Positions 9,607-27,253 of a stretch of DNA of 44,287 bases are shown here, piece by piece. Within the stretch, counting starts at the first letter, position 1. Each line of letters starts with the position of its first letter. The translations under genes and the position numbers were made by a program. Source of the DNA: a virus; the IMG/VR virus record IMGVR_UViG_3300002461_000457, positions 1-44,287 of that record; one strand, 5' to 3'. The notes below the pieces were generated by a model. It was not told the DNA's origin, did no database searches, and was given only the letters and a program-made list of their open reading frames with translations.

Positions 9607-9615
9607 GGCATGCTC

Positions 9616-10726: not shown

Positions 10727-12325
10727 TCAAAGCTCCGCGTCGATAAAGAATCTGCTGTTGCCGTTGGTGCTAGAGAGCGTGACGCCCTGCCCCGCAGTTC
10801 GCACGCCAGCGATCGTGACGTTAACCCTAGTCCTGTCCATGCCGATCGTCACCCCGGGGACACCAACAACGGTTGCGGCGTCGTTCGTTGTCGCGTTCTG
10901 AATCGTAAAGTCCCCAGCCGCAGAGAAGGTGATCGCGGGGCGGATTCTCTTGCGCTTGAAGGGCATGTTGATATAGGCCTGCGACGCCGTAACGAAGAAG
11001 CCGGCCCCGTACTGGTGCGTGCCGCCGTTCGGCGTGCCGAGCGTCTCGTAGAACTCCAGGCACTTCATCTCGTCCTGGTCGATCGTCTCGTCCCAGATCG
11101 GCACGTCCTGGGCGCCATCGGTGACCCCCATGCGGACGCCAGCGATCTCGAAATAGTCGTTCGGCACGGCGGCGCCCCATGTCGTCGTAAACCCAAGGGC
11201 GCATTGGCAGAACGAAGTGCCGACGGCCACCGTGTTGATTACGAACTCCTGCCACGACGTGGTGAGCGTGACGGGCTGCGCGACGTGCGTGTTGTAGCCG
11301 GTCCATAGAACCGACTCCAAAGCAGACGACGACGCCTCCTCGTCCTGGCCGAGAACCAGAGCGCACGTGATCTGGCTCGATGCGGCGGAGAAGCCAGAGC
11401 CCTTGCGAGCAAAGAACCGGATCGACAGTGCGCGGCCGGATATGAGGCGTGCGATCTTTGCCGGCAAGTTGGTCCTGAAGCGGCTGTCGGTGAAGACGGC
11501 CGTGGTGTCGCGCAAGATCCTGGCGCAGTACGGATACCTCTTCTTCTCGACCGAGCTCAGACCGCCGTCGGCAGCGGGCCCGGCCTGCTGGGAGATCGTC
11601 ATGTGTCCAGTTATGCCGCCGTTCTGGAAGGCATACCACCGCTGAAACATGTACGTGACGGCCGAGGCAACCGGGTTAGCGCTTGTGATCCCGGGCTTTT
11701 GTACGTGGTTGAACCCGCCGTTCAGAATCAAGTTTTTTGCGCCGAGAGCGGATACCCCGAGCGTCGATCTGGCGGTGCTTGCGTCGGCGTCGTCGAGCAG
11801 AGTACGAGCGTACGAGGTGACCGTCATAAGGGCGGCAACCCCAGGCGCAGTGAAGTAGGGCGCCCTATCCGCGTCCGAGGACAGAGCGGCAATGGCCGAA
11901 ATCTCTGCGTCTGCGGTGAGGTTGTAACTAAACCCCATCCATCGATTGAGCCCCTGATCGGTCGCAAAGGCTGCCGATGACGAGTGCGTCGCCATGCAGA
12001 TGTAGGTGTTGTTGGCGTTCACAACCAAGTCGAGCAGGTTGTACGTCGTCCCCGGGCCCGCCCAGTTCCCCCGCGGGGTGAGCGATGAGTTGATCAGAGC
12101 CAGGACCTCCGGGTGCAGCGTGTGCGACATGACCGTCTGGTCGCGCAGAGCCGTGTCGTCCCGCTGAATGATCGCAAGGTTGCTCAGAACCGCCGCGAGC
12201 GTGGCTTGCAGAGCGCTGAACTCGGCGTCGAGGTTGGCGGTTCGAACCGTCGACCGTCCGCTGACTCCGCCGGCCTCGTCGGTCGAGAAGTCGGTCGCAG
12301 GGGTATAGGCTGGGGGCTGCGCCAT
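10727..12325 (-). CDS. tail fibre protein (532 aa)
   Basis: The N-terminus YTPATDFSTDEAGGVSGRSTVRTANLDAEFSALQATLAAVLSNLAIIQRDDTALRDQTV is typical of phage tail-fibre anchors. It occupies the last structural position. Its start overlaps the mega-ORF stop (TAATG). Confidence 0.6.
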   Translation of the reverse strand: MAQPPAYTPATDFSTDEAGGVSGRSTVRTANLDAEFSALQATLAAVLSNLAIIQRDDTALRDQTVMSHTLHPEVLALINSSLTPRGNWAGPGTTYNLLDLVVNANNTYICMATHSSSAAFATDQGLNRWMGFSYNLTADAEISAIAALSSDADRAPYFTAPGVAALMTVTSYARTLLDDADASTARSTLGVSALGAKNLILNGGFNHVQKPGITSANPVASAVTYMFQRWYAFQNGGITGHMTISQQAGPAADGGLSSVEKKRYPYCARILRDTTAVFTDSRFRTNLPAKIARLISGRALSIRFFARKGSGFSAASSQITCALVLGQDEEASSSALESVLWTGYNTHVAQPVTLTTSWQEFVINTVAVGTSFCQCALGFTTTWGAAVPNDYFEIAGVRMGVTDGAQDVPIWDETIDQDEMKCLEFYETLGTPNGGTHQYGAGFFVTASQAYINMPFKRKRIRPAITFSAAGDFTIQNATTNDAATVVGVPGVTIGMDRTRVNVTIAGVRTAGQGVTLSSTNGNSRFFIDAEL

Positions 12326-15300
12326 TATCTTTGCTCCTGTGCATCGTTGTAGGCCTGCAGCGCTCGAGCCATGAGGGCGGCCTCGTCCCGCTGCAGTTGT
12401 CTTCGCTCTTTCGGGCGCTCGTCACGAGGCATGTTCTCGACCGCCTTGAAGCTCTTGCTGATCTCTGATTGCGCCTTCTTGAACTGCTGGCTCGAGATCT
12501 CCCGACCCATCGCTATCAGGGCAGGCTTCTCTTCCTCGACCTTGCCGGCAGCCTCGTAGTCACCGTCCTGCTGGTAGGCCTTGAGCAGCTTCAGCGCCTT
12601 CGTTGCGTCCTCGCGAAGCCGATAGTACTTCGCCGCCATGTCCCGGTCATCGACCTCTCCGTAGAACTTGCCGACGAACGGGATGCGCCTGACCGGGTAG
12701 TCCTCGGCCTCGGCCTGCCCCATGGCCCTGTCGATCGAGTGCCGCGTGAAGTCCAGCATCACCATGCCGAACTGGCCGACCCCGCCGGTGGCGGTGCGGA
12801 CAATGTGCTCGATCGTGGTCGGGGATATGTCGATTGCCCCTCCCTGACGCTCGTCGCCGCCGGTCAGATTCGAGAGCCACCTCGCGAGGTCCTTGGCAGT
12901 GTCGGACGTGGACCGGAAGAACAGCTTGTAGTCCGGCATCGGCCCAGACTGCGGCAGCGGCTCTGGCCGCATCGGGCTGCCGAAGAAGGTCTTGTTCTCG
13001 AGGTACTGAACGAACGGATCCGCGATCGTCGGCGCAACGTACTGCATCGGCGTCGACGTCTGGCCGAGCGGGACGAAGGCATCGATTAGCGTCTCGCCGA
13101 AGGCCCAGGCAAGATCGATCGGCTTGCGCCGCTCCTGCACAGCACCAGAGCCCGACGCCGCGAGAATCGCCTCCATGATCAGCCGGCCGGCGCCGAAGAA
13201 CACGTTGAACCCGTAGGCCAGCGGGATGCTGGTGTGTTTGCCGCCCGGCAGCATGAAGATCATGTTCTTTTGCTTCACGTGCTCCGGGATGAGCTCGTAG
13301 TAGCGGTTGCCCTCTGGGTCCCGGTCGTCGTCGTAGAACATCCGGTTGAACATCTCGAGAGCGGCGGCGAAGGCCATCATCATGCCAACGTACATCCGAG
13401 CCCGCGGGGACTTTGCTAGCCCCCAGATCATTCGAGCGGTCCCCTGCACCTGGGCATTGAAGAACATGTACCACGCATTGGCGGCAGTGTTCCTGTTGCC
13501 CTTGCGGTTGAAGTTCACCGTCATATTCTTGGCGATAGATGCGGCCCGCTTGTCGGACAGCCCTATCTTCTTCGCCTCGGCGAATGCAGACACCCGGATC
13601 GCGTTCTCGATCGCGCTGTTGGTGAGCTCCACGTACTCGAGCGCTTTGTGCCCGATCTCCCGCGGGTCCAGCCGGCTGCGGTTCGCCCGATCCAGCAGCT
13701 TGGCAATGTCCTCGTGCCGGTCGCGCAGGTCTTCCCAGATCTGCATCCAGCCGGTCTGTCCGCCGGCATCCTGGAATGCACGGTAGGTCTGAGCCCACTG
13801 AGAAGTGCCCTGCCCCTTCTCGGCGCTCAGAATCCCGACGATTGCCTTGGGGATGTTCGCAATGATCTGCGGCGCACGCCCCTCGAGCTCGGTCGACTGC
13901 AGGTTGATCGCCGCGGTCTGAATGTCCCGGGTCGCGTTGGTCACCCAGAACTGGGGGTTCCAGGAAGTGGCAAGGTTCGCCAGTAGTCTCGAGACACGTC
14001 CGACCGCCTTGGTCACGGCGCCCAGCTGCACGACGCCGAGGTTGTTCATGGCCCTGGAGATCGCCATCGCCCGCTCGTTGGACGGGTTGAAGGTGATCAC
14101 CCGCTCGACGACAGTCCCGTTCGGCCCCTTGTCCTTGACGATGAACACGTCGTCGCGCTGCCGGTAGAGCGGATCGACGGTCAGCTGCACGAGCCCGGTG
14201 CTGGGGTTGATCGTGCGCTTCACGGGCGGCGAGTCGACGCGCCAGAAGTCCGGGTTCGGGTTGTCTTCGGCCAGCTTGATCAGGGCCCGGCCGACCTTCG
14301 CACGCTCGGCGCGGATGATTGCCCGCTCGTGCTGGGAGATGACGGCCGCGATGATCGCGATCGCCTCCTTCTGCGAGCCCATGGCACGCTTCGACTCTGG
14401 GCCCACGACCTTGAACCCCTGGCCGGCTGAGGCCTGCTCTGCGTCCCGGAAGAGGGGCACGTAGTGCTTGTAGACGTTGTTCCAGGAGTCGATCGTGGAC
14501 TGCGCCTCGAGCCCCTCGCTGACCAGGATCTGCCGCGTGGCAGCCGTGATCGTGTCGATCATTCCGGCCAGCCGGTTCATATCGGCCAGCTTCCCGGAGC
14601 GGCGGAACCCGGCGATTATGTCTGCAGCATTCGGCGCCCCGGCGTTGCCGTCACGCGTAGCAGCGGCCGCATCGTCGTACAGGCCGGAGAGATTGGTCGG
14701 CCCGTTCGGGTTGATCTTGCTCATCTGCCGGTTGCGCTCTGGTGCGTGGCGAGCCCAGAGGAAGCGCCCCAGATCGTCGGCAGTGGTCTTGGTGTCCCGC
14801 ATCGCCTCGATGAGGGGCTCGACGTGGTTGCGAACCGCCTTGTTGACCCGAGTGCTGACGCGGCCGTGGTAAAGCTCTTCCGCGAGGTAGGTGTCGTTGT
14901 CCTCGCTGACAAGCCCGGCGGCGCGGAGCATCTCCTTCTGCACCTGCTTCACGTCGATGAACTTGTCCTGCCACTCTCGAATCAGGTTGTCGGTGAGGCC
15001 CGGCTCGTTCAGTCCCCAGGTCGGGGCTACGCTTCCTCGAGCGACTCGCCCAGGGGCTCCCGGTCCACCCGCTCGTCCACCGACAGTTCGCTGACCGGCA
15101 GGCTGCGGACCTCCTTGAGGTGGCGCTCCCACTCGGGATCCGGGCGGCCCTCTTGGAGTGCCCGGTCGATTCTGCCCTGCGCTTCGGTCGGGACCTTCCA
15201 GCCTTGCGACGCGCTTTTCAGCACTGAGGAAGGCACCTTTGTCCGAAAGCGCTTCGCGTAAGCGTTGGCTGACCTCGTCAGCGGATTGCGGGGCGCCTTC

Positions 15301-18300
15301 AGTCGTCTGCGAGTTGCCATAGATTTGCTCCAGTGTGTCAGCCCACGCCGGCATGGTTCGCCGAACCAGTATCGGGTCGATATTGTAGAGGGCCGAGACT
15401 TGGGCAAACAGTTCCAGCTGCCCCAGCCGGGGGTTCATCGCGCCACCCATGACGCTGCCCAGCGGGTACGACAGGATGCGGGCAAGGTCAGAGTCTGGCG
15501 ACGCGTTGAGCCACGCCCCATAGGCCTCGTCGAAGAGGTCACCGTTCTCGACGCCCCTTTCCGCCCAATCGAAGCGCAGCCGTGGGCTATCCATCGAGAC
15601 GGCATCGCGACCTTCGCTGGCCCCGAAGTCCACGGCATGCGAGATCTCGTGCGCCAGAGTAGTCAGGGCCTGCTTTCGCTCGACCGGGTCGTCGGAGTTC
15701 AGTCGCTCGAGCGTGTCCGATGACAGGGTAATGACCCGTTGGTCCGGGAAGAACGCGCCGTTCTGGCCGATGTGATCGCGTTGCGCGAAGGTAAGCCCTT
15801 CGATCACGTCCCTAGGCGCCAGCGTCGGGCCGAGCTCGTCGATCGCTTCCTGGACGTGCCCGAGAGCCTCGGTCGACAGGGCGACAACCTCCTTGCGGTT
15901 GCGCTCGGACTTGAACTTGAGGTCCTTACCGTCACCGGTTCGCACCGTGGCGGATGGCGTGCGGTCCTCCACAGAGCGATCGCTATCTCGAGTCCCGATG
16001 CGCTCAGTCACGGCATCCACGGCAGCGCGATCGATACGGCCGTCCATGAACCACGGCTCCGAGCGATCCGTTCGGTCCTCGTTCATGCTGATGCGGAAGT
16101 CTTTCGGGAACGTCTTCTTGACCTCGGCCAGCCACTGACGCCACTGCGCAGGGGTGAACCTGTACGTCTGTCCATTGCGGTCGTCGTACAGGAAGTACTG
16201 CCGGTTGTTCTTGTCTCGAGCGTACCGAACGCCGTAGTCTGTGCCGCCGTATTCGCCCTGCTTGACGGTTATGTCGGCGAACGGATTGGCGCGGCCCTCG
16301 ACCTCGTGCAGCAGCGCGTCAAGCGTGCCGTGCGACGCCTCCTGCCCAGACGTGACGACCCAGCTTTCCCAGTGCCACCGCCCCGGGCTGGCGTCCTGCT
16401 CGCGGCCCAGCTGCTTGTAAACGCCGGGCAGCACCCGCTGCAACTCCGCCTCGATCGTCTCGTAGAGCATCAGGCCGCGCACGCCGGAGGTCATGCTCGC
16501 CAGCCCAGACCCAGGCTTGATTGCCCGCTCGTCGATGAGGTCGCTCTTCTGGATGCCCTTCTCGCGAGAGATCCTCTGAATCTCTGCCTGCACGCGCTCG
16601 TCGAACTGAGCGCCGGTTTCGCCCTCGCGCTGCTCGAGCGTGGCGAACGTCTCCACCGACTGGAGCGACTGCTCATCGAGCAGGTTGCCGTAATCGTCGG
16701 TGATCTGGTTCGACCGCCTGCCCGTCAGCATCCCATAGTCATCGACGACCTCTGTCGTCGGCGAGGAGCGTCGGCGGATTGCCGTCTGGTACGTGCCGTC
16801 GTAAAGGTTGTAGTTCGCGAACGAGCCGTCGTCGAACACGTTCTTCATCTGCACTCGGTCGAGCACGACCACGTCGGTATGGCCGATGACCAGCATCGTG
16901 AAGCTGATCACCTTGTTGTCGATCCCGACGCCCTGCCCGATCTTGACGAACTCGCGCCGGATCTCCTTTGCGGTCATCTTCTTGTCGGAGAACATGTCGT
17001 GCAGGTACTGGAGCTTGGTCCTGCCGTCGGGCATGCGCTCCGACATGCGGGCAAGGAACAGCTTCCCGAACGCATTGAGGTTGTGCGTGGTCCCGTTCCC
17101 TGGCGCGGCGTCACCGTTGCGACGGGAGATCTCTTCCGCCCACTTGGCATACTCCGCCTGCTTGTTGGGACCGAAGTCGCCATTGGCCGAGGCCCGGACG
17201 AACGGCTCGATGCCGCGAACTGCGTCGAGGAACATCGACTCCTGCACGTAGGGGGAGACACCTCGAGAGAGGAACGACCACAGCATCAGCTTGCCAGTCG
17301 TTTCCACCGGGACCTTGCCGGCCTCGTAAAGCTCGCGGAACTCCTTGCCATTGGCGAACCCGGAGCTCGCGTCCGATATCTGGCCGGGAGTCAGCGAGCG
17401 CAGCTGCGAGACGATGCCGGCGCCATTGTTGGACAGCTGGCGAATGAGGTTGCGCGGAGCCACCGGAACGTCGTTGGACCCGAAGGCCTCGGCCTCGAAT
17501 TCCAGCCACGCACGGGCAGATGCCAGAGGCTTGGGGTGCGTCTTCTGCAGCCCGTCCAGGATGGACAACTGCTCAACGGCGTTGCCGTTGGTCGTCTTCT
17601 GCGTTATCTGGGCCTCGAGCGGGACTCGGGGCAGGCGAGATATGTCGACCTTCTCCCGCAGTCTGGGGACCAGACCGTGGCGGTTCGCGGCCTCGGCAGC
17701 CGCGACCCTAGCCTCTAGGGCCTGTCGTTGCTGCCGGGTTGCGCCGTTGACTTGCTGCCAGCGGGCGAAGTCGAAGCCGAACCCTTCTGCTTTCGCAGCG
17801 AGGATGTACGGGACAAGAAGTGCATCTGTGGCCCGCTCGAGAACTCCGGGTGATCCGGCGGCAGCATCGTCATCCCAAGTTTGGCGGACAACTCGCGTAT
17901 AGCCTTCGGTGACATTGCCATTGCTGTCCCCTTCCTGGAACGAATCGAGTACCCCGTGATTGTACGCGAAGGTCGATCCCGATAGGCCAACTTGTTTGGC
18001 CACCGAACTCAGCTTAGAGCCGTGCGCCACATACCCAGCCTCGTCACCGAAGTACAGGAACTTCAGCGACTTGCCGTCCGGGGTGAGCGAGGCATCCTCG
18101 CCGACCGCATTGAATGCCTTGAACGCACGCTGCACCTCAGCGGCCGAGAGAGGCTTGCCGTCCCCTCGCCCGAAGTACATGGCCGGCACAATGTCCTGGG
18201 CGCCCTCGTCGACCTTGGCGATCGCCTCAGAGGTAATCGCCGCGTCCTGCTGGAAGGCCGATGCGAGCATGGCCCCCAGTCCGCGGGTGCGCTTGAAGTC

Positions 18301-21300
18301 CAGGGCATTGCCGTCCTTGTCCTTCGCCGTGATGAAGAACGACAACTCCGGCACACCGCGCCACGACCCCTGGTACGTGACGATGCTCACCCCGTTGATG
18401 CCGAGGCTTTGCAGCAGGTCGCGGGCAGGCTTCGCTCGCAGGATCACCTCTGCGCGTGCGTGCAGCCTTGCGAGATCCCTGCCCTTTCGTCGGGTTACGG
18501 TGGCGAGCTCGTCGCCGGGCTTCGCCGAGGCGAGGACTGCGACGCCGCGGCGCTGCTCGTTGGCCGCCGACATGCCGACCTTCTCGTCGGCCTTCTTCTG
18601 CTCCCGCTCTGCCTGCTTCTGGGCCTTCAGAGCGTCGCGATCGGTGCGGTCCTCGAGCTCGCGATCGCCGGCGGCCTCATCGAACACTCGAGACTCGGCC
18701 GTCGGGAACACCTTCTTGAGCAGCGAGGGCTCCTTGCGGGGCAGGTCGCGGTTCTTGCCGGCGGCCTTGTTGATTGCCGCCACCTCTTCATCGGTCAGGA
18801 TCCGGGTGACGCGCATCTCGCCAGCGATGATCCACTGCCCGGTCATGTTGGCGTTGGTCTTGTACATGTAGTGGCCGCCGGCCGGGACCTGATCGTCGAT
18901 CTGCGCGGTCTTCGGGATGACGTTGCCCTTCTTGTCCCGCTTCGCCCGCTCGTTCGCGACCGACTGCCAGTCCTTGTCGGCGCCGACCTCGACCTGCGCC
19001 CAGACCTCGTTGCGCCTGCGCACCGTCGGCTTGCCGTCGGCGCCCTTGTCGGAGCCGATGTGGTGAGAGAAGGGCAGGTCGCTCGCGTGCCAGCCGGGGC
19101 GATACGCCAGCGTGCCGAGCGTCGACTTGACCCCCTTGCCCTGCCGCTCACCGGACTTCGCCTGCAGCCACACGCCCCCGTCGATCGCCTCGTTGGCGCG
19201 GACGTACAGGGGAAACGTCTTGCCTACGGCGTTGCCCTTGATTCGCAGCAGCTTGTATGCCGTGCGCGTTTTCTTGGGCGGGGTATCCATCTGGCTGAAC
19301 TCGAGGTCGTCGAGCTCTTCGAAGTCCTGATGGATCTGCGACTCCATGCCTCGGGCTGGGTAGGTCGTCTCGCGGACGTCGAAGATCTCACTGATCCGGT
19401 TGCCCTGCTTGCCCTTGCTGTAGCCCACGACCGAGTCGTAGCCGGCCTTGCGCACCTCATGGGCGACGATGTTCTCCTGCGTGGCATAGGCCAGCAGGTT
19501 GCCTTGTTGGCTGTTGCGCACGATCTCAGAGGCGAGCCCGCGGTCCGCGCCGTACTTCTCGAGCACGTCACCGATGCGCTGCACGAGCTCGGCCTGCGGC
19601 TGCGCATAGCGCCGGCTGGCACGCAGCACGTCCTCTCGCATGGCGTCGTACGCACCGGGACCCTTGATCGTGTCGTACGCAGTCTTGGGGGCCGCGCCGC
19701 CGGTAGCCCCTCGCACGAACATCGGCCGCCTCAGCAGCGTCTTGCCCTCGTGCCTCTCAGTGCCGCCGTACATGCGGTTGGATCCGCGATAGCCGACGGT
19801 CTGCGACGAGCTCGTGGGCAGGTAGAACACGCCAGTTCGAACAGACTCGGCGCCCTCCTGCTCGGGCTTCTGGAAGCGGACGGCGTCGATCTCGAGGCCG
19901 CCTTCGGTGATCGTTGCCCCGGGCGTGTTCGCGATCGCCTCGCGGAATACCGGGTCGGTCGGCAGCACCGAGGGCGTGTTCAGCCGCATGGCCTGCTCTG
20001 GGGTGACCTGATTGACCTCTCGATCCTGGCCGTCCTGCGGTTGCTGCTGGACCGTGGGCGCGGCGTTCCTTGCCGGTTGCTGCCGGCCGATGACGCGACG
20101 AAGGGACGCCGTGATCGCGTTGTTGTCGTCCTGGCGACCCTCAATCACCTCGGTCGGGCGGATGCGCTGCTCTCGGCTCGAGGCGACCTGATCTGGCGAC
20201 GGCAGGGCTGCGGTCGGGGTAGCGGACTCGACAGTGTCGCCTGCGAACTTCCCGCGCTTCCTCCCCTGCACGATCATCGGCGTGCCGTTGTCCTTGAACT
20301 CGGGGCTGATGGTCGGCAGGGACTCGCCCTGCTTCGGCTGGATGGCGGCGACAGCCTCCTTGATCCCGGCAAGCAGCTGCTCTTCGGGCGACATGGGCCC
20401 CTGCTGGGCGCGGAACTCCGGGTTGATCGCCGGCAGGCCGGGCTCGCCCATGGTCTTGGCGGCCGACTCGAGGGCTGCAGCCGCTCGAGCCTCCGGGTTG
20501 ACGATCTCCGGGTCTGGCAGGAAGGGCTGATTGATCGCAGGCGGGGACGCTGGCGGGGCAGGTTGAGCCGCGGCCAGGATCTCGCGCACCCGGCTGAGGG
20601 CCTGATCCTCTGGACTCATAAGGTCGCCCGGGAGTACCGGTGGTGTCCCTTCCGCCCCAGGGAGGAAAGGCGGTCGGGGTACGGTTCCCGGGCGAGCCTG
20701 TGGAACCGGGCGCATACCTGCAGAGGTAATGCCCGGATCGAATGTCTCGGAGTCGCTGAGTAACTGTCGTGCGAGGTCGGTGATCGTGTTCGCCTGTCCC
20801 AGCTGCGTGGGATCCATGCGACGGTCGACGCCGATGCGTTGCGAGATGCCGGCGCCGGCCTGCATTCCGCCGGAGACGATCGCGCCCATGGCGGCAGCAC
20901 CCGCCACTCGCTCGAGCATCTGCTTGGGCGTCATGCCGTTCTCGAGGCCCAGAAGCATGCGGTTCTCGATCTGGCCGAGCTCGGTGAGGCCCTCGCCCAG
21001 GGACTCGCCCAGCAGCGCCTTGACGCGTTGCGTGAGGGCCTCCCCGGTCATTCCCCGGGTCTTCATGGCCTTGATCGTTTCGCCGAAGCCGATCTGCTCT
21101 CCCAGGAATTCCCAGAATGCATCGGAGGCCGCCAGCTGCACGCGCTCGAGCGTCGGCAGGTTCGCGTACTTCGGGTCGTTGTACGTGCCGGCGCCCGAGA
21201 AGATCGACATGGCCATCGTCGGGGCCTTGGTAACCGCGAAGGATTCCATCGCGGCCGCCACCTGCGTGGGCGTTACGGCATTTTTCAGCGGACCCAGGCC

Positions 21301-22170
21301 GGCCCAGTAGAACGGGGCATTGGCGACGATGTTGGCGACCGCCTCCTGCGCAACGCCACCGATGCCGGTCAGCGGCTTGATGTTGGCGCCGAAGAGCTCG
21401 CGCTCCCTGCGGCTGCCGGCGAAGTAGTCAGATGCGGAATCCCAGCCGACCAGATCTGCAAAGGCCTTGGCGAAGCCCTCGCCACCTTGGTACAGCTGCT
21501 CGACGCCCTGCACTGCGCCTCGAGCTAGGGGCGCCAGCACCGCGCCAGCACCCGGCCGGCCACCCCTGGCGACCATCAGGTTGCCGTTCACGTCCACCAC
21601 GGGCGCAGGATCGCCACCGCCAATAGACGCGGCAGCCTGCCTGACAGCCTCGCTAGTGCGTCCGAGCGCCGTCGACGGGGCACTGGGGGGCGCAACCTGA
21701 GTACGCGCAAAGCCGGCGTCCTGGAGCAGCTTGCGGCGGGCGTATTCCGCAGGGCTGAGAGTGACCCCTGGAACGAGCCTCGACTCTGGCCCCGGAGCGG
21801 GCATCGTCGGTGACGACGGGACGGGCGTGCCGTCCATACCGGCCATGACGGATTGCGGCTTCGGCGGGGTGATCCCGACGGCCCGCTCGATCACGTTCGG
21901 CTGCGACGGCGCCGGCAGGCCCCAGACCTGTCGGGCTACGGCCATGCCCGGCTGCATGATCGCAGGCGCCTTGGAAATCGCGTCAGAGGCTGCCTGCGGC
22001 AAGCGCTCGGCGACCGCCTCCTTCATGGTCGTGACGACGCGCCGCACTGTGTCCATGAACGACGGCTCTGGGCGCTTCGGCGCACCCTCTGCCTCGAGCG
22101 GCACAAAGCCCCGCCGGGGAGTGTCCTCGACGTCGGTGTCCTGCGATTCTGCGAGAGGGACGAAAGGCAT
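12325..22170 (-). CDS. giant multi-domain virion / ejection (polyvalent-type) protein, 3,281 codons as one open frame
   Basis: Uninterrupted ORF in the T7 gp15/gp16 position. HEISH zincin motif at 15637-15651. Hydrophobic segments lie in the C-terminal third. Caveat: the coding signal leaves this frame at about 15215-15027 (see findings). Confidence 0.7.
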   Translation of the reverse strand: MPFVPLAESQDTDVEDTPRRGFVPLEAEGAPKRPEPSFMDTVRRVVTTMKEAVAERLPQAASDAISKAPAIMQPGMAVARQVWGLPAPSQPNVIERAVGITPPKPQSVMAGMDGTPVPSSPTMPAPGPESRLVPGVTLSPAEYARRKLLQDAGFARTQVAPPSAPSTALGRTSEAVRQAAASIGGGDPAPVVDVNGNLMVARGGRPGAGAVLAPLARGAVQGVEQLYQGGEGFAKAFADLVGWDSASDYFAGSRRERELFGANIKPLTGIGGVAQEAVANIVANAPFYWAGLGPLKNAVTPTQVAAAMESFAVTKAPTMAMSIFSGAGTYNDPKYANLPTLERVQLAASDAFWEFLGEQIGFGETIKAMKTRGMTGEALTQRVKALLGESLGEGLTELGQIENRMLLGLENGMTPKQMLERVAGAAAMGAIVSGGMQAGAGISQRIGVDRRMDPTQLGQANTITDLARQLLSDSETFDPGITSAGMRPVPQARPGTVPRPPFLPGAEGTPPVLPGDLMSPEDQALSRVREILAAAQPAPPASPPAINQPFLPDPEIVNPEARAAAALESAAKTMGEPGLPAINPEFRAQQGPMSPEEQLLAGIKEAVAAIQPKQGESLPTISPEFKDNGTPMIVQGRKRGKFAGDTVESATPTAALPSPDQVASSREQRIRPTEVIEGRQDDNNAITASLRRVIGRQQPARNAAPTVQQQPQDGQDREVNQVTPEQAMRLNTPSVLPTDPVFREAIANTPGATITEGGLEIDAVRFQKPEQEGAESVRTGVFYLPTSSSQTVGYRGSNRMYGGTERHEGKTLLRRPMFVRGATGGAAPKTAYDTIKGPGAYDAMREDVLRASRRYAQPQAELVQRIGDVLEKYGADRGLASEIVRNSQQGNLLAYATQENIVAHEVRKAGYDSVVGYSKGKQGNRISEIFDVRETTYPARGMESQIHQDFEELDDLEFSQMDTPPKKTRTAYKLLRIKGNAVGKTFPLYVRANEAIDGGVWLQAKSGERQGKGVKSTLGTLAYRPGWHASDLPFSHHIGSDKGADGKPTVRRRNEVWAQVEVGADKDWQSVANERAKRDKKGNVIPKTAQIDDQVPAGGHYMYKTNANMTGQWIIAGEMRVTRILTDEEVAAINKAAGKNRDLPRKEPSLLKKVFPTAESRVFDEAAGDRELEDRTDRDALKAQKQAEREQKKADEKVGMSAANEQRRGVAVLASAKPGDELATVTRRKGRDLARLHARAEVILRAKPARDLLQSLGINGVSIVTYQGSWRGVPELSFFITAKDKDGNALDFKRTRGLGAMLASAFQQDAAITSEAIAKVDEGAQDIVPAMYFGRGDGKPLSAAEVQRAFKAFNAVGEDASLTPDGKSLKFLYFGDEAGYVAHGSKLSSVAKQVGLSGSTFAYNHGVLDSFQEGDSNGNVTEGYTRVVRQTWDDDAAAGSPGVLERATDALLVPYILAAKAEGFGFDFARWQQVNGATRQQRQALEARVAAAEAANRHGLVPRLREKVDISRLPRVPLEAQITQKTTNGNAVEQLSILDGLQKTHPKPLASARAWLEFEAEAFGSNDVPVAPRNLIRQLSNNGAGIVSQLRSLTPGQISDASSGFANGKEFRELYEAGKVPVETTGKLMLWSFLSRGVSPYVQESMFLDAVRGIEPFVRASANGDFGPNKQAEYAKWAEEISRRNGDAAPGNGTTHNLNAFGKLFLARMSERMPDGRTKLQYLHDMFSDKKMTAKEIRREFVKIGQGVGIDNKVISFTMLVIGHTDVVVLDRVQMKNVFDDGSFANYNLYDGTYQTAIRRRSSPTTEVVDDYGMLTGRRSNQITDDYGNLLDEQSLQSVETFATLEQREGETGAQFDERVQAEIQRISREKGIQKSDLIDERAIKPGSGLASMTSGVRGLMLYETIEAELQRVLPGVYKQLGREQDASPGRWHWESWVVTSGQEASHGTLDALLHEVEGRANPFADITVKQGEYGGTDYGVRYARDKNNRQYFLYDDRNGQTYRFTPAQWRQWLAEVKKTFPKDFRISMNEDRTDRSEPWFMDGRIDRAAVDAVTERIGTRDSDRSVEDRTPSATVRTGDGKDLKFKSERNRKEVVALSTEALGHVQEAIDELGPTLAPRDVIEGLTFAQRDHIGQNGAFFPDQRVITLSSDTLERLNSDDPVERKQALTTLAHEISHAVDFGASEGRDAVSMDSPRLRFDWAERGVENGDLFDEAYGAWLNASPDSDLARILSYPLGSVMGGAMNPRLGQLELFAQVSALYNIDPILVRRTMPAWADTLEQIYGNSQTTEGAPQSADEVSQRLREALSDKGAFLSAEKRVARLEGPDRSAGQNRPGTPRGPPGSRVGAPPQGGPQPAGQRTVGGRAGGPGAPGRVARGSVAPTWGLNEPGLTDNLIREWQDKFIDVKQVQKEMLRAAGLVSEDNDTYLAEELYHGRVSTRVNKAVRNHVEPLIEAMRDTKTTADDLGRFLWARHAPERNRQMSKINPNGPTNLSGLYDDAAAATRDGNAGAPNAADIIAGFRRSGKLADMNRLAGMIDTITAATRQILVSEGLEAQSTIDSWNNVYKHYVPLFRDAEQASAGQGFKVVGPESKRAMGSQKEAIAIIAAVISQHERAIIRAERAKVGRALIKLAEDNPNPDFWRVDSPPVKRTINPSTGLVQLTVDPLYRQRDDVFIVKDKGPNGTVVERVITFNPSNERAMAISRAMNNLGVVQLGAVTKAVGRVSRLLANLATSWNPQFWVTNATRDIQTAAINLQSTELEGRAPQIIANIPKAIVGILSAEKGQGTSQWAQTYRAFQDAGGQTGWMQIWEDLRDRHEDIAKLLDRANRSRLDPREIGHKALEYVELTNSAIENAIRVSAFAEAKKIGLSDKRAASIAKNMTVNFNRKGNRNTAANAWYMFFNAQVQGTARMIWGLAKSPRARMYVGMMMAFAAALEMFNRMFYDDDRDPEGNRYYELIPEHVKQKNMIFMLPGGKHTSIPLAYGFNVFFGAGRLIMEAILAASGSGAVQERRKPIDLAWAFGETLIDAFVPLGQTSTPMQYVAPTIADPFVQYLENKTFFGSPMRPEPLPQSGPMPDYKLFFRSTSDTAKDLARWLSNLTGGDERQGGAIDISPTTIEHIVRTATGGVGQFGMVMLDFTRHSIDRAMGQAEAEDYPVRRIPFVGKFYGEVDDRDMAAKYYRLREDATKALKLLKAYQQDGDYEAAGKVEEEKPALIAMGREISSQQFKKAQSEISKSFKAVENMPRDERPKERRQLQRDEAALMARALQAYNDAQEQR

Positions 22171-22171
22171 G

Positions 22172-23194
22172 TCAGTTGTAGTGCCCGATGAGATTGCCGT
22201 CTTTGTCGCGGACTTCGAAGCCCTTGCCCGGAGTCCAGTTCGATATCGTTGAGCCTGGGTTGGCCTTCATGGTCGGGTCGGTTCTGAAGCGCGTCCGGGC
22301 CTCACTTTGCTTGCGCACGTCGATCTCTTGCTTCTGTGCGTCGGCCTTGGCGCCGGCAGCCTCGCCGCGGCCCCCTGCCGCCTTTGCTCGAGCGGCCGGG
22401 CCACCAGCAGCAACGTCCGCCTTCTTGACGCCTGCGCCCGCTCTGGAGGCCTCTGCAGCGGCCTTGGACTGATCTGCCCGAGCCCCAGGCAGGTCGACCT
22501 CGATCTCGCGGTTGGTGAGCCGCGTGCGTGCGCCGCTGGCCCCAGCTGCAGCGCTACGCTGCCCGGTAAGAGCCTTGGTGGCGTCGATCGCCGCGTTGAA
22601 CAGGTCGTTGTTGCCGATGGTGGCGACGCCAGACTCCTGGTTCACGACGAGCCCTTCACGCGTCGGCTGGCCGAACGGCTCACGCGCCTTGCGCCCGGCA
22701 GCGGTCACAAGCGGGGCCTGCTGGGCGGCATCCGAGATCTCGGCCGCCCGGTTGATCAGCATGGTGTCGATGCCGCGGCCGCCGGAATGCACCAGCTGAT
22801 CGGCGTTGGTCTTGCCTGTGGCGAGACGGTTGCCGATCACCGAGCCCATGAACGAGCGGAATGCCCGGTCCTGCTCTGGCGTCAGGGCCGGGGCCTCTAC
22901 ACCCTCGACCCCAAGAATTGCGTCTCGAAACTGGCGGGCAACCGGCAGCGTCAGGCCGGCATTAACAGCCGCAAAGGTGAGCCCGTTCTCCGGGTCCGCC
23001 CGGAAGGCCTGCTCGGCACGCAGAGCCTCGACCTCCTGGCGAGCCTTCTCGGCAAGGGCGGTGCGCTGGCCTACCTGCGCGACATGCGAGTCGATCGCGG
23101 CGTGGTCCGCTGCCGTCATGTTCGGCGTGCTGGTCACCAGTTGCCGAAGGGAGTCGGCGATCGAAGTCGGCCGACGGGTTCTGAATTCAGGCAT
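22172..23194 (-). CDS. internal virion / ejection-associated protein (340 aa)
   Basis: GAGGTG lies 5 nt upstream. Assigned from its position between small internal-virion-like genes and the mega-ORF. Confidence 0.45.
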   Translation of the reverse strand: MPEFRTRRPTSIADSLRQLVTSTPNMTAADHAAIDSHVAQVGQRTALAEKARQEVEALRAEQAFRADPENGLTFAAVNAGLTLPVARQFRDAILGVEGVEAPALTPEQDRAFRSFMGSVIGNRLATGKTNADQLVHSGGRGIDTMLINRAAEISDAAQQAPLVTAAGRKAREPFGQPTREGLVVNQESGVATIGNNDLFNAAIDATKALTGQRSAAAGASGARTRLTNREIEVDLPGARADQSKAAAEASRAGAGVKKADVAAGGPAARAKAAGGRGEAAGAKADAQKQEIDVRKQSEARTRFRTDPTMKANPGSTISNWTPGKGFEVRDKDGNLIGHYN

Positions 23195-23203
23195 CGTTGC
23201 ACC

Positions 23204-23905
23204 TCACAGTCGCAGGCCGAGCGACGGCCCGGCCGGCATCTTCAGCCCGACCGACCCAGTTAGGTTGCCGACCTTGGCCGCGCCACCGCTGGCGGCCGTC
23301 GCAGGATTCGCAAAGCCGAGCATCGCCAGAGCCCCGGACAGCTGGCCGATGGTCTTCAGCGTGCTGTTAGGACGAACCGTCTGGATCGCCGACATGTACT
23401 GGTCGCCGACGTTCCTCGAGGCCGAGCCCGCCGCGTTCATCTGCGTCGCCGCTCGCGATAGGCGCAGGTCGTCATCGGTGGCCATCTGGCCGGTTGTGGC
23501 GCCCACTGCCAGCTGCTCGATCGCCCGCTTGATCTTGGCGGTCGTGTCCTCGACACCGGCCGACCGAGAGCGAGCGTAGTCAGCAGAGACGCGGCCTCCG
23601 AAGTCAGGCCCCGCCGGTTGCGCCTTTACGGCTTCGGCAACGGTCTGCTCGATCGATCGCCGGACGTTGCCTTGCGTCGCCTCCATCTGGGCCGCTCGAG
23701 CCTCTGGGGTGATCGTGTCCATGTAGCCCTTGGTGGCAGCCTCTTGCTCGCCAGCCTTCACGAGCCCGTACTGCCTCATGGCCTCGGAGAGTTGCCTCTG
23801 ACGCTTCTCGACGCCGCGCTGGCCTGCGATCTGCGAGAGCGCACTGACACCGGCCGCCGCGTATGGCGCCCACGCCGGGAGTGCGGCAAGAAGTTCTGGA
23901 CCCAT
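23204..23905 (-). CDS. internal virion-like protein (233 aa)
   Basis: Assigned from position. The protein is Ala/Gly-rich with a hydrophobic N-terminus. Confidence 0.45.
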   Translation of the reverse strand: MGPELLAALPAWAPYAAAGVSALSQIAGQRGVEKRQRQLSEAMRQYGLVKAGEQEAATKGYMDTITPEARAAQMEATQGNVRRSIEQTVAEAVKAQPAGPDFGGRVSADYARSRSAGVEDTTAKIKRAIEQLAVGATTGQMATDDDLRLSRAATQMNAAGSASRNVGDQYMSAIQTVRPNSTLKTIGQLSGALAMLGFANPATAASGGAAKVGNLTGSVGLKMPAGPSLGLRL

Positions 23906-23908
23906 GGC

Positions 23909-24556
23909 TTAGTACCTCACGACCGTGCCGGAGCCGGTGTTGATGGGGTTGTAGATGCTCGACGTCTTTGCCTTCAATGCCGCCAGCATCTGCTGCTCTT
24001 TCGATGCGGCGTCGGACAAAGACTTGTTGAACGCCGTGTCGGCGAGGATGTCACCGAACAGCTGCTGCCTCTGACTGGAGTTCGCCATGTTCAGCGAGTT
24101 CTTCAGCCCCGAGGTCGCAGCGTTGACAGCTTCGGCGCCGCCACCGGAGGAGATCATGTTCAGAGCATTGGCACGAGAAGCCTCGCGCTGGGCCTGCAGG
24201 CTCGACAGGGCGTTGCGCACCGCCTCGTCGATTCTGGTCGCGCCCATCTGGTTGTCCCGGTCGAGCTCAGTCCTGCCCTCCGAGTACGCGCTACCCAGGT
24301 TACCGGAGTCCGCAGCCCTGAACTTTAGGTTGCGCATCGCGTCCGTAAACTTCTTGGACAGTTCGGTCGTGTAGTACCCGCGCAGGGACTCGCCCAGCTG
24401 CTTGTCCTCGTTCGCGAACTGCGCCTTGGCCGGCTCGGCATCGAAGAGTGAGTTGACCTGATCTCGCAGGGCCTGCTTACGTGCCTCCTCTTGCTTCTGG
24501 TACTCGATGCCGCTGTTGTCGCCGCCGCTTGCACCGCCAAATACTTTGCCCATCAT
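23909..24556 (-). CDS. internal virion-like protein (about 215 aa)
   Basis: ATGATG at 24556-24551 overlaps the upstream stop (ATGA). The sequence is coiled-coil-like and Gln/Ala-rich. Confidence 0.45.
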   Translation of the reverse strand: MMGKVFGGASGGDNSGIEYQKQEEARKQALRDQVNSLFDAEPAKAQFANEDKQLGESLRGYYTTELSKKFTDAMRNLKFRAADSGNLGSAYSEGRTELDRDNQMGATRIDEAVRNALSSLQAQREASRANALNMISSGGGAEAVNAATSGLKNSLNMANSSQRQQLFGDILADTAFNKSLSDAASKEQQMLAALKAKTSSIYNPINTGSGTVVRY

Positions 24557-25011
24557 GCACCTCTCATAGAGAACAGCAACAGGTCCCCACCATCGTCTCT
24601 TACAGACGGCAGCCGACAGTCGAAATCGAACCCCATTCGCAGCAAGAACGTGGCATTCACCTTCGACTCCGACGCCACCGTTGCCTCGATCCTGGCCCAT
24701 GGCGCGATCTCTCGAAACTTGCGCCACGCCCGGATTCCATCACGCAGGTGAGCGAGCCACCCATCGGTCGTCACCAGGAACGCCACGCCCACTCGAGGCG
24801 TCGTCTCGCGGATGCCAAAGCAACCGACGGGGCGGCCGGCATCATCGACGGCAGCGACACCCGCCACGCACTCGAGCGCGGTCCTGCACGCCCAGCGCTG
24901 CCGGCTCACCGGGTCGGTCTTGATGCCGCATACCTCGAGGTCGCGCACGTCAGACTCACGCATCCGAAGGGCGATCGACACAAGGTGCCATGGCTCGAGG
25001 GCGACGATCAT
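24553..25011 (-). CDS. T7 gp13-like internal virion protein A (GNAT-like fold, DUF2833-type)
   Basis: It follows the putative tail tubular genes, as gp13 does in T7. Pattern: ...GCFGIRETTPRVGVAFLVTT...IEATVASESKVNATFLLRMGFDF. Called from memory only. Confidence 0.4.
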   Translation of the reverse strand: MIVALEPWHLVSIALRMRESDVRDLEVCGIKTDPVSRQRWACRTALECVAGVAAVDDAGRPVGCFGIRETTPRVGVAFLVTTDGWLAHLRDGIRAWRKFREIAPWARIEATVASESKVNATFLLRMGFDFDCRLPSVRDDGGDLLLFSMRGA

Positions 25012-26594
25012 AGCGGCCCCAGCACTTCGTAGTAGGTCTGCAGCAGCGAGAGCTCAAAGTCCTCGTCCGCCTCGTGCGAGATCACCGGCGCCACCGACAC
25101 CGCGGCCACTTCCATCGGGGACAAGCCGTCCGGCCTCGAGTCAGCAGTCACTGCGTACGGGGCAGTCTCCCATGACGGGTTGCGCGAGTCGTACTTGAAC
25201 GACGCCGAGAACGTGCCCTTGCCGGCAGCATCGAATCCGATGAACTGCTTCAGCAGTCCAGGAGCCTTGTTGTCCTGGAAGAACATCTCCGCATAGCAGA
25301 GCGGCGGGATGCCGTCGTCACTGGTGGCTGTCGGCGAGATCTCGTAGACGGTGTTGCTTGACCGACAGTACAGGCTGTTGTCGAGGACCGTCAGCGTCGA
25401 AACGTCAGAAGGGAAGTCGAAGATGGCCCACGCGGACAGCTTCGCCGTCTTGGAGTAGGACAGGACGTACGCTCGAGAGCCGTTGACGCACCACACCTGC
25501 CCGAGCTTCGGGAAGTAGACCGACGACGGGTCATCGGCGTCATCGATCTCGGAGCGGAAGGCGTCGATTGGCGTGCCACTGTCCGACTCCTGCAGGTTGT
25601 TGGTTAGCACCGCGATCGAGATCGTGCGAAACCCCTCCTGCGCAAGGAACAGCAGGTCGCCCGCGAACGATATCGGAGTGCCACCGTGCAACGTACCGAT
25701 CTGGTCTGCCGTGCCCTTCAGGGCATTGTTGGCCGGGGCCGACGCAACGGTCCAGATCTGCGTCGAATCGGCATAGAAGATCGCAAGGTCGCCACCGAAC
25801 GAGCCGAGCCCTGTGACCGTGTCCGAGCCGGAAGCGTGAATGTCCGATGGGATGAAGCCAGCATCGGAGGTCGTGGTCCAGTCGCGGGCATCGGTCGCCG
25901 CGCAGAAGCGCACGTTCGAACCATTGTTGCTGTACAACTTCTGCCCGATCTTCTTGACGTACTTGCCGTGGGGGCAATTGGCGTCCACGACCTTGTAGGT
26001 GAGGCACGTCCAGACAACCTGATTGGGCCCCGGGTTGTCTGTCACCGTCCCGCCAGGGGTGAGCGGCCAGTTCGGCTCAAGGCCGCCTGTGGTTCCGGTT
26101 CCAGATATCGATGTGGCCTGATACCGGTAGCCGTTCGACACGGTCGGTCGACGATATGAGTTGAGCGAGATTGCCACCCCGGGCGCCCATGCAGTGAGGG
26201 CCTGCTCATCAAGGTAGTGGTGCTCGACCGTGCCATTGACATATTCGGCCGACACATACAGGTAGCCGTTGAAGAGCTCGGCATAGTGGATCTTGGCGAC
26301 CGGGGACGCGGCGCCCTGATTGCGCACTCGACGAGCAACGAAGCGGGTGTCGGCGTGGGTGATTGCGACGCCGTCCGCAGAGAAGAACGTGTTGAGCTTC
26401 CCAGCCGCAGCCCTCAGGCCCTTGGTCCCAGCCTCGAGTCCGGCGATGTTGTGCAGACAGGGGCGCTTCTTGATCGACTTGCCCTTGGTGACGTAGCAGT
26501 TCGTCAGCGACCAAAGGGCGTTCGCGATCGGCGAGTGCTGCAGCCTTCGCCGGTCCAGTCCACCTCCGAAGTTGTCCCAGAGGATCGTCGGCAT
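25008..26594 (-). CDS. tail tubular B / nozzle-hub-like protein (528 aa)
   Basis: Assigned from gene order (after the adaptor-like gene), size and beta-rich sequence. ATGA and TGATG overlaps are present on both sides. Confidence 0.4.
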   Translation of the reverse strand: MPTILWDNFGGGLDRRRLQHSPIANALWSLTNCYVTKGKSIKKRPCLHNIAGLEAGTKGLRAAAGKLNTFFSADGVAITHADTRFVARRVRNQGAASPVAKIHYAELFNGYLYVSAEYVNGTVEHHYLDEQALTAWAPGVAISLNSYRRPTVSNGYRYQATSISGTGTTGGLEPNWPLTPGGTVTDNPGPNQVVWTCLTYKVVDANCPHGKYVKKIGQKLYSNNGSNVRFCAATDARDWTTTSDAGFIPSDIHASGSDTVTGLGSFGGDLAIFYADSTQIWTVASAPANNALKGTADQIGTLHGGTPISFAGDLLFLAQEGFRTISIAVLTNNLQESDSGTPIDAFRSEIDDADDPSSVYFPKLGQVWCVNGSRAYVLSYSKTAKLSAWAIFDFPSDVSTLTVLDNSLYCRSSNTVYEISPTATSDDGIPPLCYAEMFFQDNKAPGLLKQFIGFDAAGKGTFSASFKYDSRNPSWETAPYAVTADSRPDGLSPMEVAAVSVAPVISHEADEDFELSLLQTYYEVLGPL

Positions 26595-27253
26595 CAGATC
26601 ACCTGCGGTTTCGAGAGGGCGTTCTCTTCCTGGTAGTCGTACGGGCTGAACACTGCCTTCTTGCGTGCCTGCCCGCGCAGCCTCGTCAGCAGCGACTCTG
26701 CACGCTGCAGGTACAGCTGCGCATCGGGCTGCCGGTAGTGAGCCTTCGCGTCACCCAGGGCCACCAGGAACACGAGCGTGTCGTCGATCGTGAACCGGTC
26801 GTTGTCGTCGGTGAGGCGTGCCAGTTTCTGGATGTAGAACACCCGGATGTTGCGGATGGTGTCGTTCTTGGGCCAAAGCTCGATCTGCTCCGACGCCTCC
26901 CATCGCTGGGGCCAGCCGACGTTGTCCTGCGTCGAGTACATCGCCGCGGCGATGCCCTTCGCGATCGGCGGGGACCAGTCGTTGCTCCCAGTCATGTCCA
27001 CCGATATCGCCTTCACCCGCTCCGGGTTGGCGTTGGTCGGGTAGTCGATGAGGTACTGGTTGACGCCCAGGGACATCACCTCGTACTTGCGCAGCTTGAC
27101 CCAGTCGGCGGCCTCGTAGAGCGTTGCCTGGGCCGTCCGAAGGATCGAGTCGATGTTGGTCTTCATCACGCCGGCAGCAGCACCGGTCGCAGCAAAGCCC
27201 AGCCGAGCGATGAGCTCGGCACGCTTCTCCCCAAGGGTGGCCCAGGTAGTCAT
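26594..27253 (-). CDS. tail tubular A / head-tail adaptor-like protein (219 aa)
   Basis: Assigned from gene order and size (T7 gp11 class). Confidence 0.4.
   Translation of the reverse strand: MTTWATLGEKRAELIARLGFAATGAAAGVMKTNIDSILRTAQATLYEAADWVKLRKYEVMSLGVNQYLIDYPTNANPERVKAISVDMTGSNDWSPPIAKGIAAAMYSTQDNVGWPQRWEASEQIELWPKNDTIRNIRVFYIQKLARLTDDNDRFTIDDTLVFLVALGDAKAHYRQPDAQLYLQRAESLLTRLRGQARKKAVFSPYDYQEENALSKPQVI

Follow-up and report, generated by a model that had tools for sequence, protein, structure and literature searches.

In phage-type polyvalent proteins a zincin-like HExxHxxD...E motif is combined with LPD38, a domain restricted to proteins of this type (Iyer, Burroughs, Anand, de Souza and Aravind, 2017, J Bacteriol; PMC5512222). 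They are encoded in late or structural operons, have relatives with ART-PolyVal, LPD22, GNAT and InPase domains, and are predicted to be delivered together with the DNA. A C-terminal LPD38 module of ~890 amino acids (aa) is also found in the 'DarB-like' proteins Bcep22 gp75 and JC1 gp69 of Lessievirus podophages and in homologues from Ralstonia phage GP4. The vRNAP of the Schitoviridae (N4 gp50, DEV gp71), which for N4 is experimentally known to be injected, comprises ~3,300-3,500 aa and is free of cysteine (Cys), and its gene adjoins genes of small Cys-free ejection proteins. T7 gp14, gp15 and gp16 and P22 gp7, gp20 and gp16, which are likewise Cys-free, are encoded between the tail tube genes and the fibre or spike gene and presumably exit through the tail. 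Here, we describe a giant open reading frame (ORF) in the IMG/VR virus record IMGVR_UViG_3300002461_000457, analysed over positions 1 to 44,287 (44,287 nucleotides (nt), called the window in the following), which shares features with each of these systems. Its product is probably a phage-type polyvalent protein, i.e. a multi-domain cargo protein that is packaged into the virion and injected. The hallmark domain LPD38, a shuffled multi-domain make-up and a location in a late structural operon with packaging genes were all found. Homologues of the protein carry ART-PolyVal, LPD22 and GNAT domains. An initial annotation, made from the sequence alone, had proposed a mega-protein of polyvalent type, and this proposal is supported by these domains and by the LPD38 match (E 7e-38).

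The giant ORF, located on the minus strand (12325..22170), runs from an ATG to a TAA codon, encodes 3,281 aa with 0 cysteines and accounts for 22.2% of the window, in agreement with the single 9.8-kb frame of 3,281 codons and ~22% of the genome that had been annotated initially, to which the strand was added. From the base composition, the probability of 3,281 codons remaining free of stops was ~10^-36.6, and after shuffling the window 50 times the longest stop-free run reached 404 codons; a chance origin of the frame was therefore excluded. The GC (guanine plus cytosine) content at codon positions 1/2/3 was 0.66/0.47/0.83. Two long plus-strand ORFs run antisense within the gene, at 17992-20763 (923 aa) and 15739-17718 (659 aa). 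These are typical by-products of GC-rich coding (GC3 0.83) and not genes. The start codon was backed by homology to the sister protein P0002, which extends from residue 1 on. An identical product (P0001) was found on the ENA contig k127_97887 (44,320 nt) from PRJNA301005, an activated-carbon metagenome of a water filter. A near-identity DNA search with the gene against 50,697 phage records gave no match, and whole-protein searches of the PDB sequences, NCBIfam and PADLOC were all empty. As a single gene of the late operon, it directly adjoins or overlaps the genes on either side: the stop of the upstream gene and the start of the giant ORF read TGA-c-ATG, and at the other end its TAA overlaps the ATG of the following fibre gene (TAATG), with AGGAG 8 nt upstream of that ATG. 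The genes for TerS, TerL, the major capsid protein (MCP), the adaptor and the tail fibre lie on the same strand and in one operon with it.

A link to a described protein was provided by the C-terminal module I (aa 2390-3281; 12328..15003, minus strand), a conserved 'chassis' which includes LPD38 at aa 2958-3166 (nt 12673-13299; Pfam, E 6.9e-38, 131 bits against a cut-off of 27). Over its full length of ~890 aa it matched phrog_14770 (E 4e-173), phrog_616 and phrog_10691. Matches were found in 352 of the 50,697 phage records, with relatives in Stx2 phages, in Vibrio, Ralstonia, Burkholderia and Bacillus phages and in a Methanosarcina virus, and the module was C-terminal in 20 of 20 homologues. 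Among the relatives is JC1 gp69, annotated as 'DarB-like antirestriction protein', for which 51 unique peptides were obtained by mass spectrometry from CsCl-purified virions of the Burkholderia phage JC1 (PMC9144972). Like the giant protein, JC1 gp69 (4,515 aa) contains 0 Cys, accounts for about 22% of its genome (22.1%) and is encoded at the end of the morphogenesis operon. Residues 2390-3274 of the giant protein aligned to residues 3618-4512 of JC1 gp69 (E 4e-68), and only module I aligned. In the same Pfam search JC1 gp69 showed, unlike the giant protein, an SLT domain at its start, an Eco57I-type methylase, an SNF2 helicase and LPD3, followed by the C-terminal LPD38. Since module I is all that the two share, the chassis is common to a virion-borne protein and the cargo is not. 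As judged by these alignments, module I is the chassis shared by a whole family of giant phage proteins, at least one of which was detected in purified virions.

The AlphaFold2 (AF2) model of module I was mostly helical, with predicted local distance difference test (pLDDT) values mostly of 70-94, and had no fold match in the PDB; a Foldseek search with the preceding module H and module I combined returned no phage core proteins, with E 0.11 for the best match. Hydrophobic segments compatible with membrane insertion had been annotated in this part of the protein. No 19-residue window of the giant protein reached a Kyte-Doolittle value of 1.6 (maximum 1.35), and classical transmembrane helices were rejected for this reason. 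The first of the annotated segments corresponds to a helix at aa ~2925-2945 that has a conserved position, with basic residues and an acidic run next to it; it exceeded 1.6 in 6 of 15 family members and stayed at 1.05 here. The second was not hydrophobic in homologues. Resting on one sub-threshold helix, the proposed membrane insertion was overstated.

The comparison with JC1 gp69 also bears on the name of the protein. The hallmarks of P1 DarB, an N6-adenine DNA methyltransferase and a helicase, were both found by Pfam in JC1 gp69 and neither in the giant protein. 'DarB-like' is thus a wrong name for the giant protein, because the cargo of JC1 gp69 is not shared. Likewise, it differs from the described polyvalent proteins in that its modules other than LPD38 match no Pfam model and in that it carries no methyltransferase, helicase, ART, lysozyme or nuclease domain. 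On sequence criteria the modules A, C, D, E and F+G are undescribed, and the class of the protein is already known.

The module map was built by comparison with 14 and then with ~200 homologous giants. At least seven modules were distinguished, and four of them (C, D, F+G and I) were encountered again in differing architectures. The sister protein P0002 (2,119 aa), encoded on a syntenic contig, keeps module A (49% identity) and modules H+I (71% identity) and carries ~270 unrelated residues in place of aa ~712-2064 of the giant protein. Modules C to G consequently act as a swappable cassette, and the middle ~1,350 aa can be described, from these comparisons, as a cassette of the independent domain families C, D, E and F+G. 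Module A (aa 1-450; 20821..22170, minus strand) is a lineage-specific N-terminal module without Pfam or PDB match; among 218 fetched giants it was present in P0002, P0007 and P0008 only, always at the N-terminus. It is followed by the Pro-rich linker region B (aa 451-719; 20014..20820, minus strand), conserved in P0002 only. The repeated Pro-rich modules described for the N-terminal third held true as far as Pro-richness is concerned (residues 1-200, within module A, and 480-720); as for repeats, one unit of ~33 aa was found, present just twice, at aa 517-549 and 592-624 (local score 71 versus 25 +/- 5 in shuffles).

The cassette opens with module C (aa 720-953; 19312..20013, minus strand), a recurrent domain without Pfam model and with the motifs SVRTGVFYLP, KGATGG, AGYDSVVGYSK and SEIFDVRE. 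It was matched by ~40 homologues at 42-61% identity and elsewhere adjoins ART-PolyVal, LPD1, LPD22 or Mu-F domains. A profile of C+D had no match in the PDB apart from a marginal one to CMP-NeuAc synthetase (E 0.018) over a short motif, which was judged not meaningful. Module D (aa 965-1148; 18727..19278, minus strand) corresponds to phrog_30118 of unknown function (E 9e-53), contains the motifs AYKL, LAYRPGWH and YxYKTN and elsewhere adjoins ART-PolyVal, InPase or DUF6321. It was the only part of aa 1-2390 matched in the 50,697 phage records, namely in the Roseobacter phage CRP-212. A charged helical linker (aa 1149-1251) leads to module E (aa 1252-1450; 17821..18417, minus strand), a poorly conserved block which precedes F+G in a subset of homologues and was matched by P0013 and four IMG/VR ORFs of the type 'EFG'. 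Several globular blocks matching nothing nameable had been noted initially, and several such blocks are indeed real, conserved and unnamed. The two that had been quoted as examples were found to be conserved domains: one is module D, the other is F+G, with 405 representative clusters.

Module F+G (aa 1490-2065; 15976..17703, minus strand) is a mostly helical, enzyme-like domain of ~480 aa; the copy in the giant protein contains an insertion of ~90 disordered residues at aa 1794-1885 (nt 16516-16791). F and G were contiguous in homologues. The 405 clusters came from an exhaustive search at 50% identity, 282 of them with E < 1e-30, and were mostly found in proteins of 1,000-5,000 aa. At least 357 IMG/VR contigs encode the domain, and a tblastn search with aa 1-2390 against the 50,697 records of isolate phages did not find F+G in any of them. 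Since module I was present in 0 of 80 IMG/VR ORFs carrying F+G, the domain represents a mobile cargo domain on several chassis. In the contigs of P0006 and P0003, two F+G-bearing homologues, the giant comes after the nozzle. For P0006, a T7_gp14-family gene and then a 676-aa gene separate nozzle and giant, which places this giant in the slot of T7 gp16. Five homologous giants (P0104, P0120, P0141, P0193 and P0205; 724-1,784 aa) had no Pfam match at E <= 1 over their entire length despite containing F+G and an HExxH module. Judged by the domains recognised, these same unannotated domains, F+G and the HExxH module, underlie a large block of phage 'dark matter'.

In an alignment of 119 sequences F+G showed more than 20 invariant polar residues, including S1635, R1636, E1644, D1649, N1697, H1724, R1738, K1753, D1766, D1771, R1772, E1904, E1907, H1933 and H1947. 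Its AF2 model reached a pLDDT of 88.1 and a predicted template modelling score (pTM) of 0.88. A Foldseek search of the PDB gave no fold match at E <= 0.001, and in BFVD two independently predicted 'uncharacterized' proteins of uncultured phages were matched with a template modelling score (TM) of 0.74. The model supports with confidence a new fold with enzyme-like invariant residues. The conserved residues suggest that F+G is probably an enzyme, possibly one acting on nucleic acid. A lysozyme/SLT reading of a 'QES' motif was dropped as no lysozyme-like Foldseek match was obtained. A second candidate was the HhH-GPD DNA glycosylases, whose hallmark is a helix-hairpin-helix with a Gly/Pro-rich loop and a catalytic Asp ~18-20 residues after the Lys position of the hairpin. 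By our own motif reading, G1749-I-D-N-K1753...D1771 has the K120-D138 spacing of EndoIII, and the AF2 secondary structure at this segment consists of helix, hairpin, helix, loop and an Asp-capped helix. The profile of F+G found no glycosylase in the PDB, and in Foldseek glycosylases stayed at noise level (EndoIII-1, E 1.5, probability 0.21; AGOG, E 6-8; viral 3-methyladenine glycosylase, E 4.9). The alignment with an EndoIII profile by hhalign gave a probability of 0.4%, with a shallow reference profile; attempts at a deeper one by genome and metagenome scans yielded only sequences 87-100% identical to E. coli Nth, which makes this test a weak one. With no significant profile or fold match, membership in the HhH-GPD family was rejected and the resemblance was kept as a lead. 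It is a speculative and rather unlikely possibility that F+G founds a new superfamily of injected enzymes, nucleic-acid-acting, with a helix-hairpin-helix and an invariant Lys/Asp pair, glycosylase/lyase-like, serving as an early counter-defence or takeover effector. The superfamily would then occur in hundreds of short-tailed phages that have not been cultivated and in no cultured phage among the genomes searched, and C, D, E and A would add three or four undescribed effector families to the same protein.

Between cassette and chassis lies module H (aa 2066-2300; 15271..15975, minus strand), followed by a Pro/Gly-rich low-complexity linker (aa 2301-2389; 15004..15270, minus strand) with 13 Pro and 19 Gly per 100 residues and a pLDDT of 30-41. 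The annotated HExxH motif LAHEISHAVDF was confirmed at nt 15625-15657 (aa 2172-2182). With 0.02 expected by chance, it is the sole HExxH of the protein, and orthologous modules have conserved it; exactly one HExxH was found in 13 of 14 giant homologues. The motif reads H2174-E-I-S-H2178-A-V-D2181 and E2253 follows ~75 residues on in an E-L-F-A-Q helix. Both patches were conserved in P0002, P0007, P0008, P0210, P0199 and P0204 and more weakly in seven other giants. The widespread zincin peptidase of phage-type polyvalent proteins has been described as carrying a Glu on the helix that follows and an Asp at the third position past HExxH, and autoproteolytic release of domains has been proposed (Iyer et al., 2017; PMC5512222). 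Module H agrees with this published description of the zincin-like metallopeptidase (MPTase) motif, i.e. HExxHxxD and a downstream Glu helix, and is likely zincin-like. Homologues of module H were collected by local jackhmmer, as a search with the module alone returned nothing, probably swamped by the Pro/Gly linker. Of the alignments, a combined MAFFT alignment of E+F+G+H was discarded because divergent H segments were misplaced, and alignment A3, which forced the non-homologous module G onto H columns, was replaced by A4. Searched in isolation, module H gave sub-threshold matches to M12B (E 0.17) and M48 (E 0.23) in Pfam; the best PDB profile match was IrrE (E 1.3, sub-threshold) on the HExxH region. 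Intermediate sequences, tried as a link between module H and Pfam, did not match any Pfam family.

The amino acid composition of the protein was unusual. To 0 Cys in 3,281 residues an average of 0.88% in the other 22 ORFs of the phage has to be compared (P = 2.5e-13). Of the homologous giants of at least 2,000 aa, 66 of 84 were without Cys, with 33 Cys in 248,045 aa altogether; in the F+G-carrying ORFs of 80 IMG/VR loci 37 Cys in 156,226 aa were counted. No Cys is present in T7 gp15 and gp16, in P22 gp7, gp20 and gp16 and in N4 vRNAP, gp51 and gp52. The portals, nozzles, spikes and terminases checked contained 0.3-1.5%. In Schitoviridae, Cys suppression has been documented for the ejection operon and explained by transit across the oxidising periplasm (Lokareddy et al., 2024; PMC11445570). 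The N4 vRNAP further resembles the giant protein in its layout of cargo, zincin-like HExxH module and C-terminal domain. The two proteins are otherwise different: the N4-type RNA polymerase domains (vRNAP_dom, N4_RNAP_helical) were detected by Pfam in N4 gp50 and are absent from the giant protein, LPD38 was not detected by Pfam in N4 vRNAP, and BLASTP found no similarity between them (E > 0.09).

The suppression extends to the genes next to the giant ORF. Directly upstream, three consecutive Cys-free genes of 214, 233 and 340 aa (22172..24553, minus strand) are preceded by a 152-aa gene with 5 Cys (24553-25011, minus strand). This pattern has its counterpart in T7, where gp14-16 come after gp13, and in P22, where gp7, gp20 and gp16 come after gp14. 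Significant matches of the small genes in Pfam, PHROG or NCBIfam were not found, T7_gp14 included, and phmmer searches starting from T7 gp13-16 and P22 gp14, gp7, gp20 and gp16 gave no match at E <= 10. The initial description of these genes as gp13/gp14-like did not hold, as similarity to T7 gp13 or gp14 was not detectable. By analogy, the 214-, 233- and 340-aa proteins are candidate companion ejection or conduit proteins. That they and the giant protein are ejected is suggested by compositional evidence, which is not proof. In the contig of P0006 (L086, 6700-9758), from a BPP-1/T7-like podophage, the Cys-free rule holds too: between nozzle and giant a small acetyltransferase with 0 Cys and the 676-aa protein, which is Cys-free, are encoded along with the T7_gp14-family protein.

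Two alternatives were weighed against these data. A non-virion, late intracellular multi-enzyme, or an artefact of metagenome assembly by which unrelated genes were joined in frame, would be compatible with a sequence taken from a single assembled contig and with the absence of the middle cassette from the nearest relative. Against this stand the 9.8-kb open frame with its uniform coding signature (GC3 0.83), the cassette, which is itself Cys-free, hundreds of independent contigs with comparable giants, where F+G-carrying ORFs reach more than 5,300 aa, and the virion-borne homologue of the chassis; we regard this explanation as highly improbable. The second alternative is a purely structural protein, i.e. 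an enlarged fusion or replacement of the internal-core and conduit proteins in the role of T7 gp15/gp16 or P22 gp7/gp20/gp16, with the middle consisting of spacers or conduit parts. The gene lies in the same gene-order slot, is Cys-free like gp15/gp16, encodes a largely helical module I with one conserved hydrophobic helix, and the activities of its cargo are putative. In contrast, similarity to the T7 or P22 core proteins was found neither in sequence nor in fold, SLT is absent, and the protein has 2.5 times the size of gp16 and a swappable middle. The initial assignment as a counterpart of gp15/gp16 was not borne out, with no phmmer match at E <= 10, no PDB sequence match, no SLT and no core proteins in the Foldseek search of H+I. 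Moreover, the sister phage manages without the entire 1,350-aa middle, the middle domains move among unrelated architectures beside ART-PolyVal and InPase enzymes, the invariant polar set of F+G is enzyme-like, and the three small Cys-free upstream genes could supply the conduit. Altogether, a purely structural role appears improbable.

For a phage-type polyvalent protein, injection is plausible because module I is common to the virion protein JC1 gp69 and because the protein carries the Cys-free signature of ejected proteins. Under this reading we infer the packaging, ejection and self-cleavage of this protein and all cargo functions as follows. A few copies would be packed into the head via the H+I region. 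At infection they would move out along the tail channel in a mostly unfolded state, accompanied by the products of the three small Cys-free genes just upstream, and would cross the oxidising periplasm without disulfide formation. The zincin module would then cut the flexible Pro/Gly-rich linkers and free the cargo domains. The cargo (C, D, E, F+G) would act on the host early, most plausibly by blunting defence or preparing the cell, with F+G as a probable, possibly nucleic-acid-acting, enzyme.

Several observations weigh against the polyvalent reading. For the giant protein itself, presence in virions, ejection and cleavage are what we infer, and the role of module I is drawn from JC1 gp69 only, as no similarity to solved ejection proteins was detected. 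The absence of Cys is not specific to ejection, because scaffolding and some capsid proteins are Cys-free as well. Module H matched no peptidase model; on the whole protein Pfam gave no such hit at E <= 1, MPTase-PolyVal included. Its AF2 model was poor (pLDDT 30-85, no beta-sheet or strands) since only three homologues were available. The metallopeptidase module of polyvalent type in the initial annotation therefore stood with respect to the motif and the Glu helix, and not with respect to a match to MPTase-PolyVal or another peptidase model. Activities are not assigned to the cargo modules, with the PADLOC, NCBIfam and PDB searches empty, and the contig is a metagenome assembly without cultured host.

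The surroundings of the gene agree with a short-tailed phage. The head part of the minus-strand late operon comprises TerS, TerL, a 767-aa gene in portal position, a Cys-free 417-aa gene in scaffold position and the MCP. Three Laminin_G_3 proteins, an SU10-type adaptor, a 528-aa gene in nozzle position and the small genes of 152, 214, 233 and 340 aa follow, and the operon ends with the giant ORF, a tail-fibre-like gene, a GH108 endolysin and a GTA-type holin. The podovirus tail genes, i.e. adaptor and 528-aa gene, lie upstream of the giant ORF at 25008..27253 (minus strand). The adaptor (26594-27253, minus strand) was recognised as PF24175 SU10_adaptor in the precomputed Pfam annotation of the source contig. 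The nozzle role of the 528-aa gene was assigned by position alone, as its product had no significant family match. Downstream, the tail-fibre-like gene (532 aa; 10727..12325, minus strand) showed weak PHROG tail-fibre matches (E 1e-6). The annotated gene order was hence reproduced, with adaptor, 528-aa gene, four small genes, giant ORF and tail-fibre-like gene on the minus strand. The affiliation to T7-like phages did not stand up: neither RNA nor DNA polymerase was matched among the window ORFs scanned, an exonuclease of RecE/YqaJ type, a Holliday-junction resolvase and a replication initiator are encoded among the early genes, and the capsid is nearest to those of phages of the Mx8, RHph_N65 and Mae-Yong1326-1 type. 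The positional argument nevertheless holds for short-tailed phages in general, since the giant ORF lies after adaptor, nozzle and small genes and before the fibre.

This neighbourhood also bears on a third explanation, according to which the giant protein is an external virion component, i.e. a tail appendage, host-recognition or wall-degrading protein staying outside the cell. The adjoining tail-fibre-like gene, the three Laminin_G_3 proteins encoded nearby and the wall-cleaving SLT domain at the beginning of the relative JC1 gp69 are in favour of it. By Pfam, however, the giant protein contains no fibre, beta-helix or carbohydrate-binding signal and no SLT or lysozyme domain, its predicted domains are mainly helical, and a total suppression of Cys was not seen in the tailspikes, fibres and nozzles checked (0.5-1.5% Cys). 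An external location is therefore very unlikely.

Further observations concern the phage as a whole. The ORFs of 237, 471 and 454 aa at 27906-31392 (minus strand) are arranged in tandem, each with Laminin_G_3 (PF13385) and weak matches to phrog_8510 'virion structural protein'; situated after the head genes and before the adaptor, they may encode paralogous decoration or appendage proteins. In PHROGs, Pfam and NCBIfam, the genes in portal position (34817-37120, 767 aa) and in scaffold position (33567-34820, 417 aa, 0 Cys) gave a weak coiled-coil signal and no match to a family of portals or scaffolds. By sequence, the head-assembly module is very divergent. The nearest isolates by capsid protein were the Microcystis phage Mae-Yong1326-1, the Rhizobium phage RHph_N65 and the Myxococcus phages Mx8/Mx9 at 24-28% identity. 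Over the whole locus the nearest relative was a syntenic metagenomic contig with an integrase. On the sister contig L001 (ERZ922821) a tyrosine integrase is encoded at 19970-20980, downstream of the lysis genes; none turned up among the window ORFs scanned. The lysis genes of the window (9220-10167, minus strand) encode a GH108 endolysin with PG_binding_3 and a GTA-type holin with three transmembrane segments (PF11351). The GC content of 64%, the lysis genes and the Roseobacter-phage match of module D hint at an alphaproteobacterial host.

To our knowledge, very few injected phage proteins have been characterised. Such proteins are prime candidates for anti-defence functions, because they act before any phage gene is expressed. 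The giant protein shows that an LPD38-type chassis can carry a payload consisting entirely of families absent from Pfam, NCBIfam, PADLOC and PDB. Within this payload F+G offers a concrete, testable target, being abundant in environmental phages and combining a confidently predicted fold without solved relative with a candidate active site. Finally, the rule of Cys suppression, a cheap compositional marker for ejected proteins, is extended from Schitoviridae to ~160 giants of another family, and three small proteins of the phage described here emerge from it as ejection candidates.

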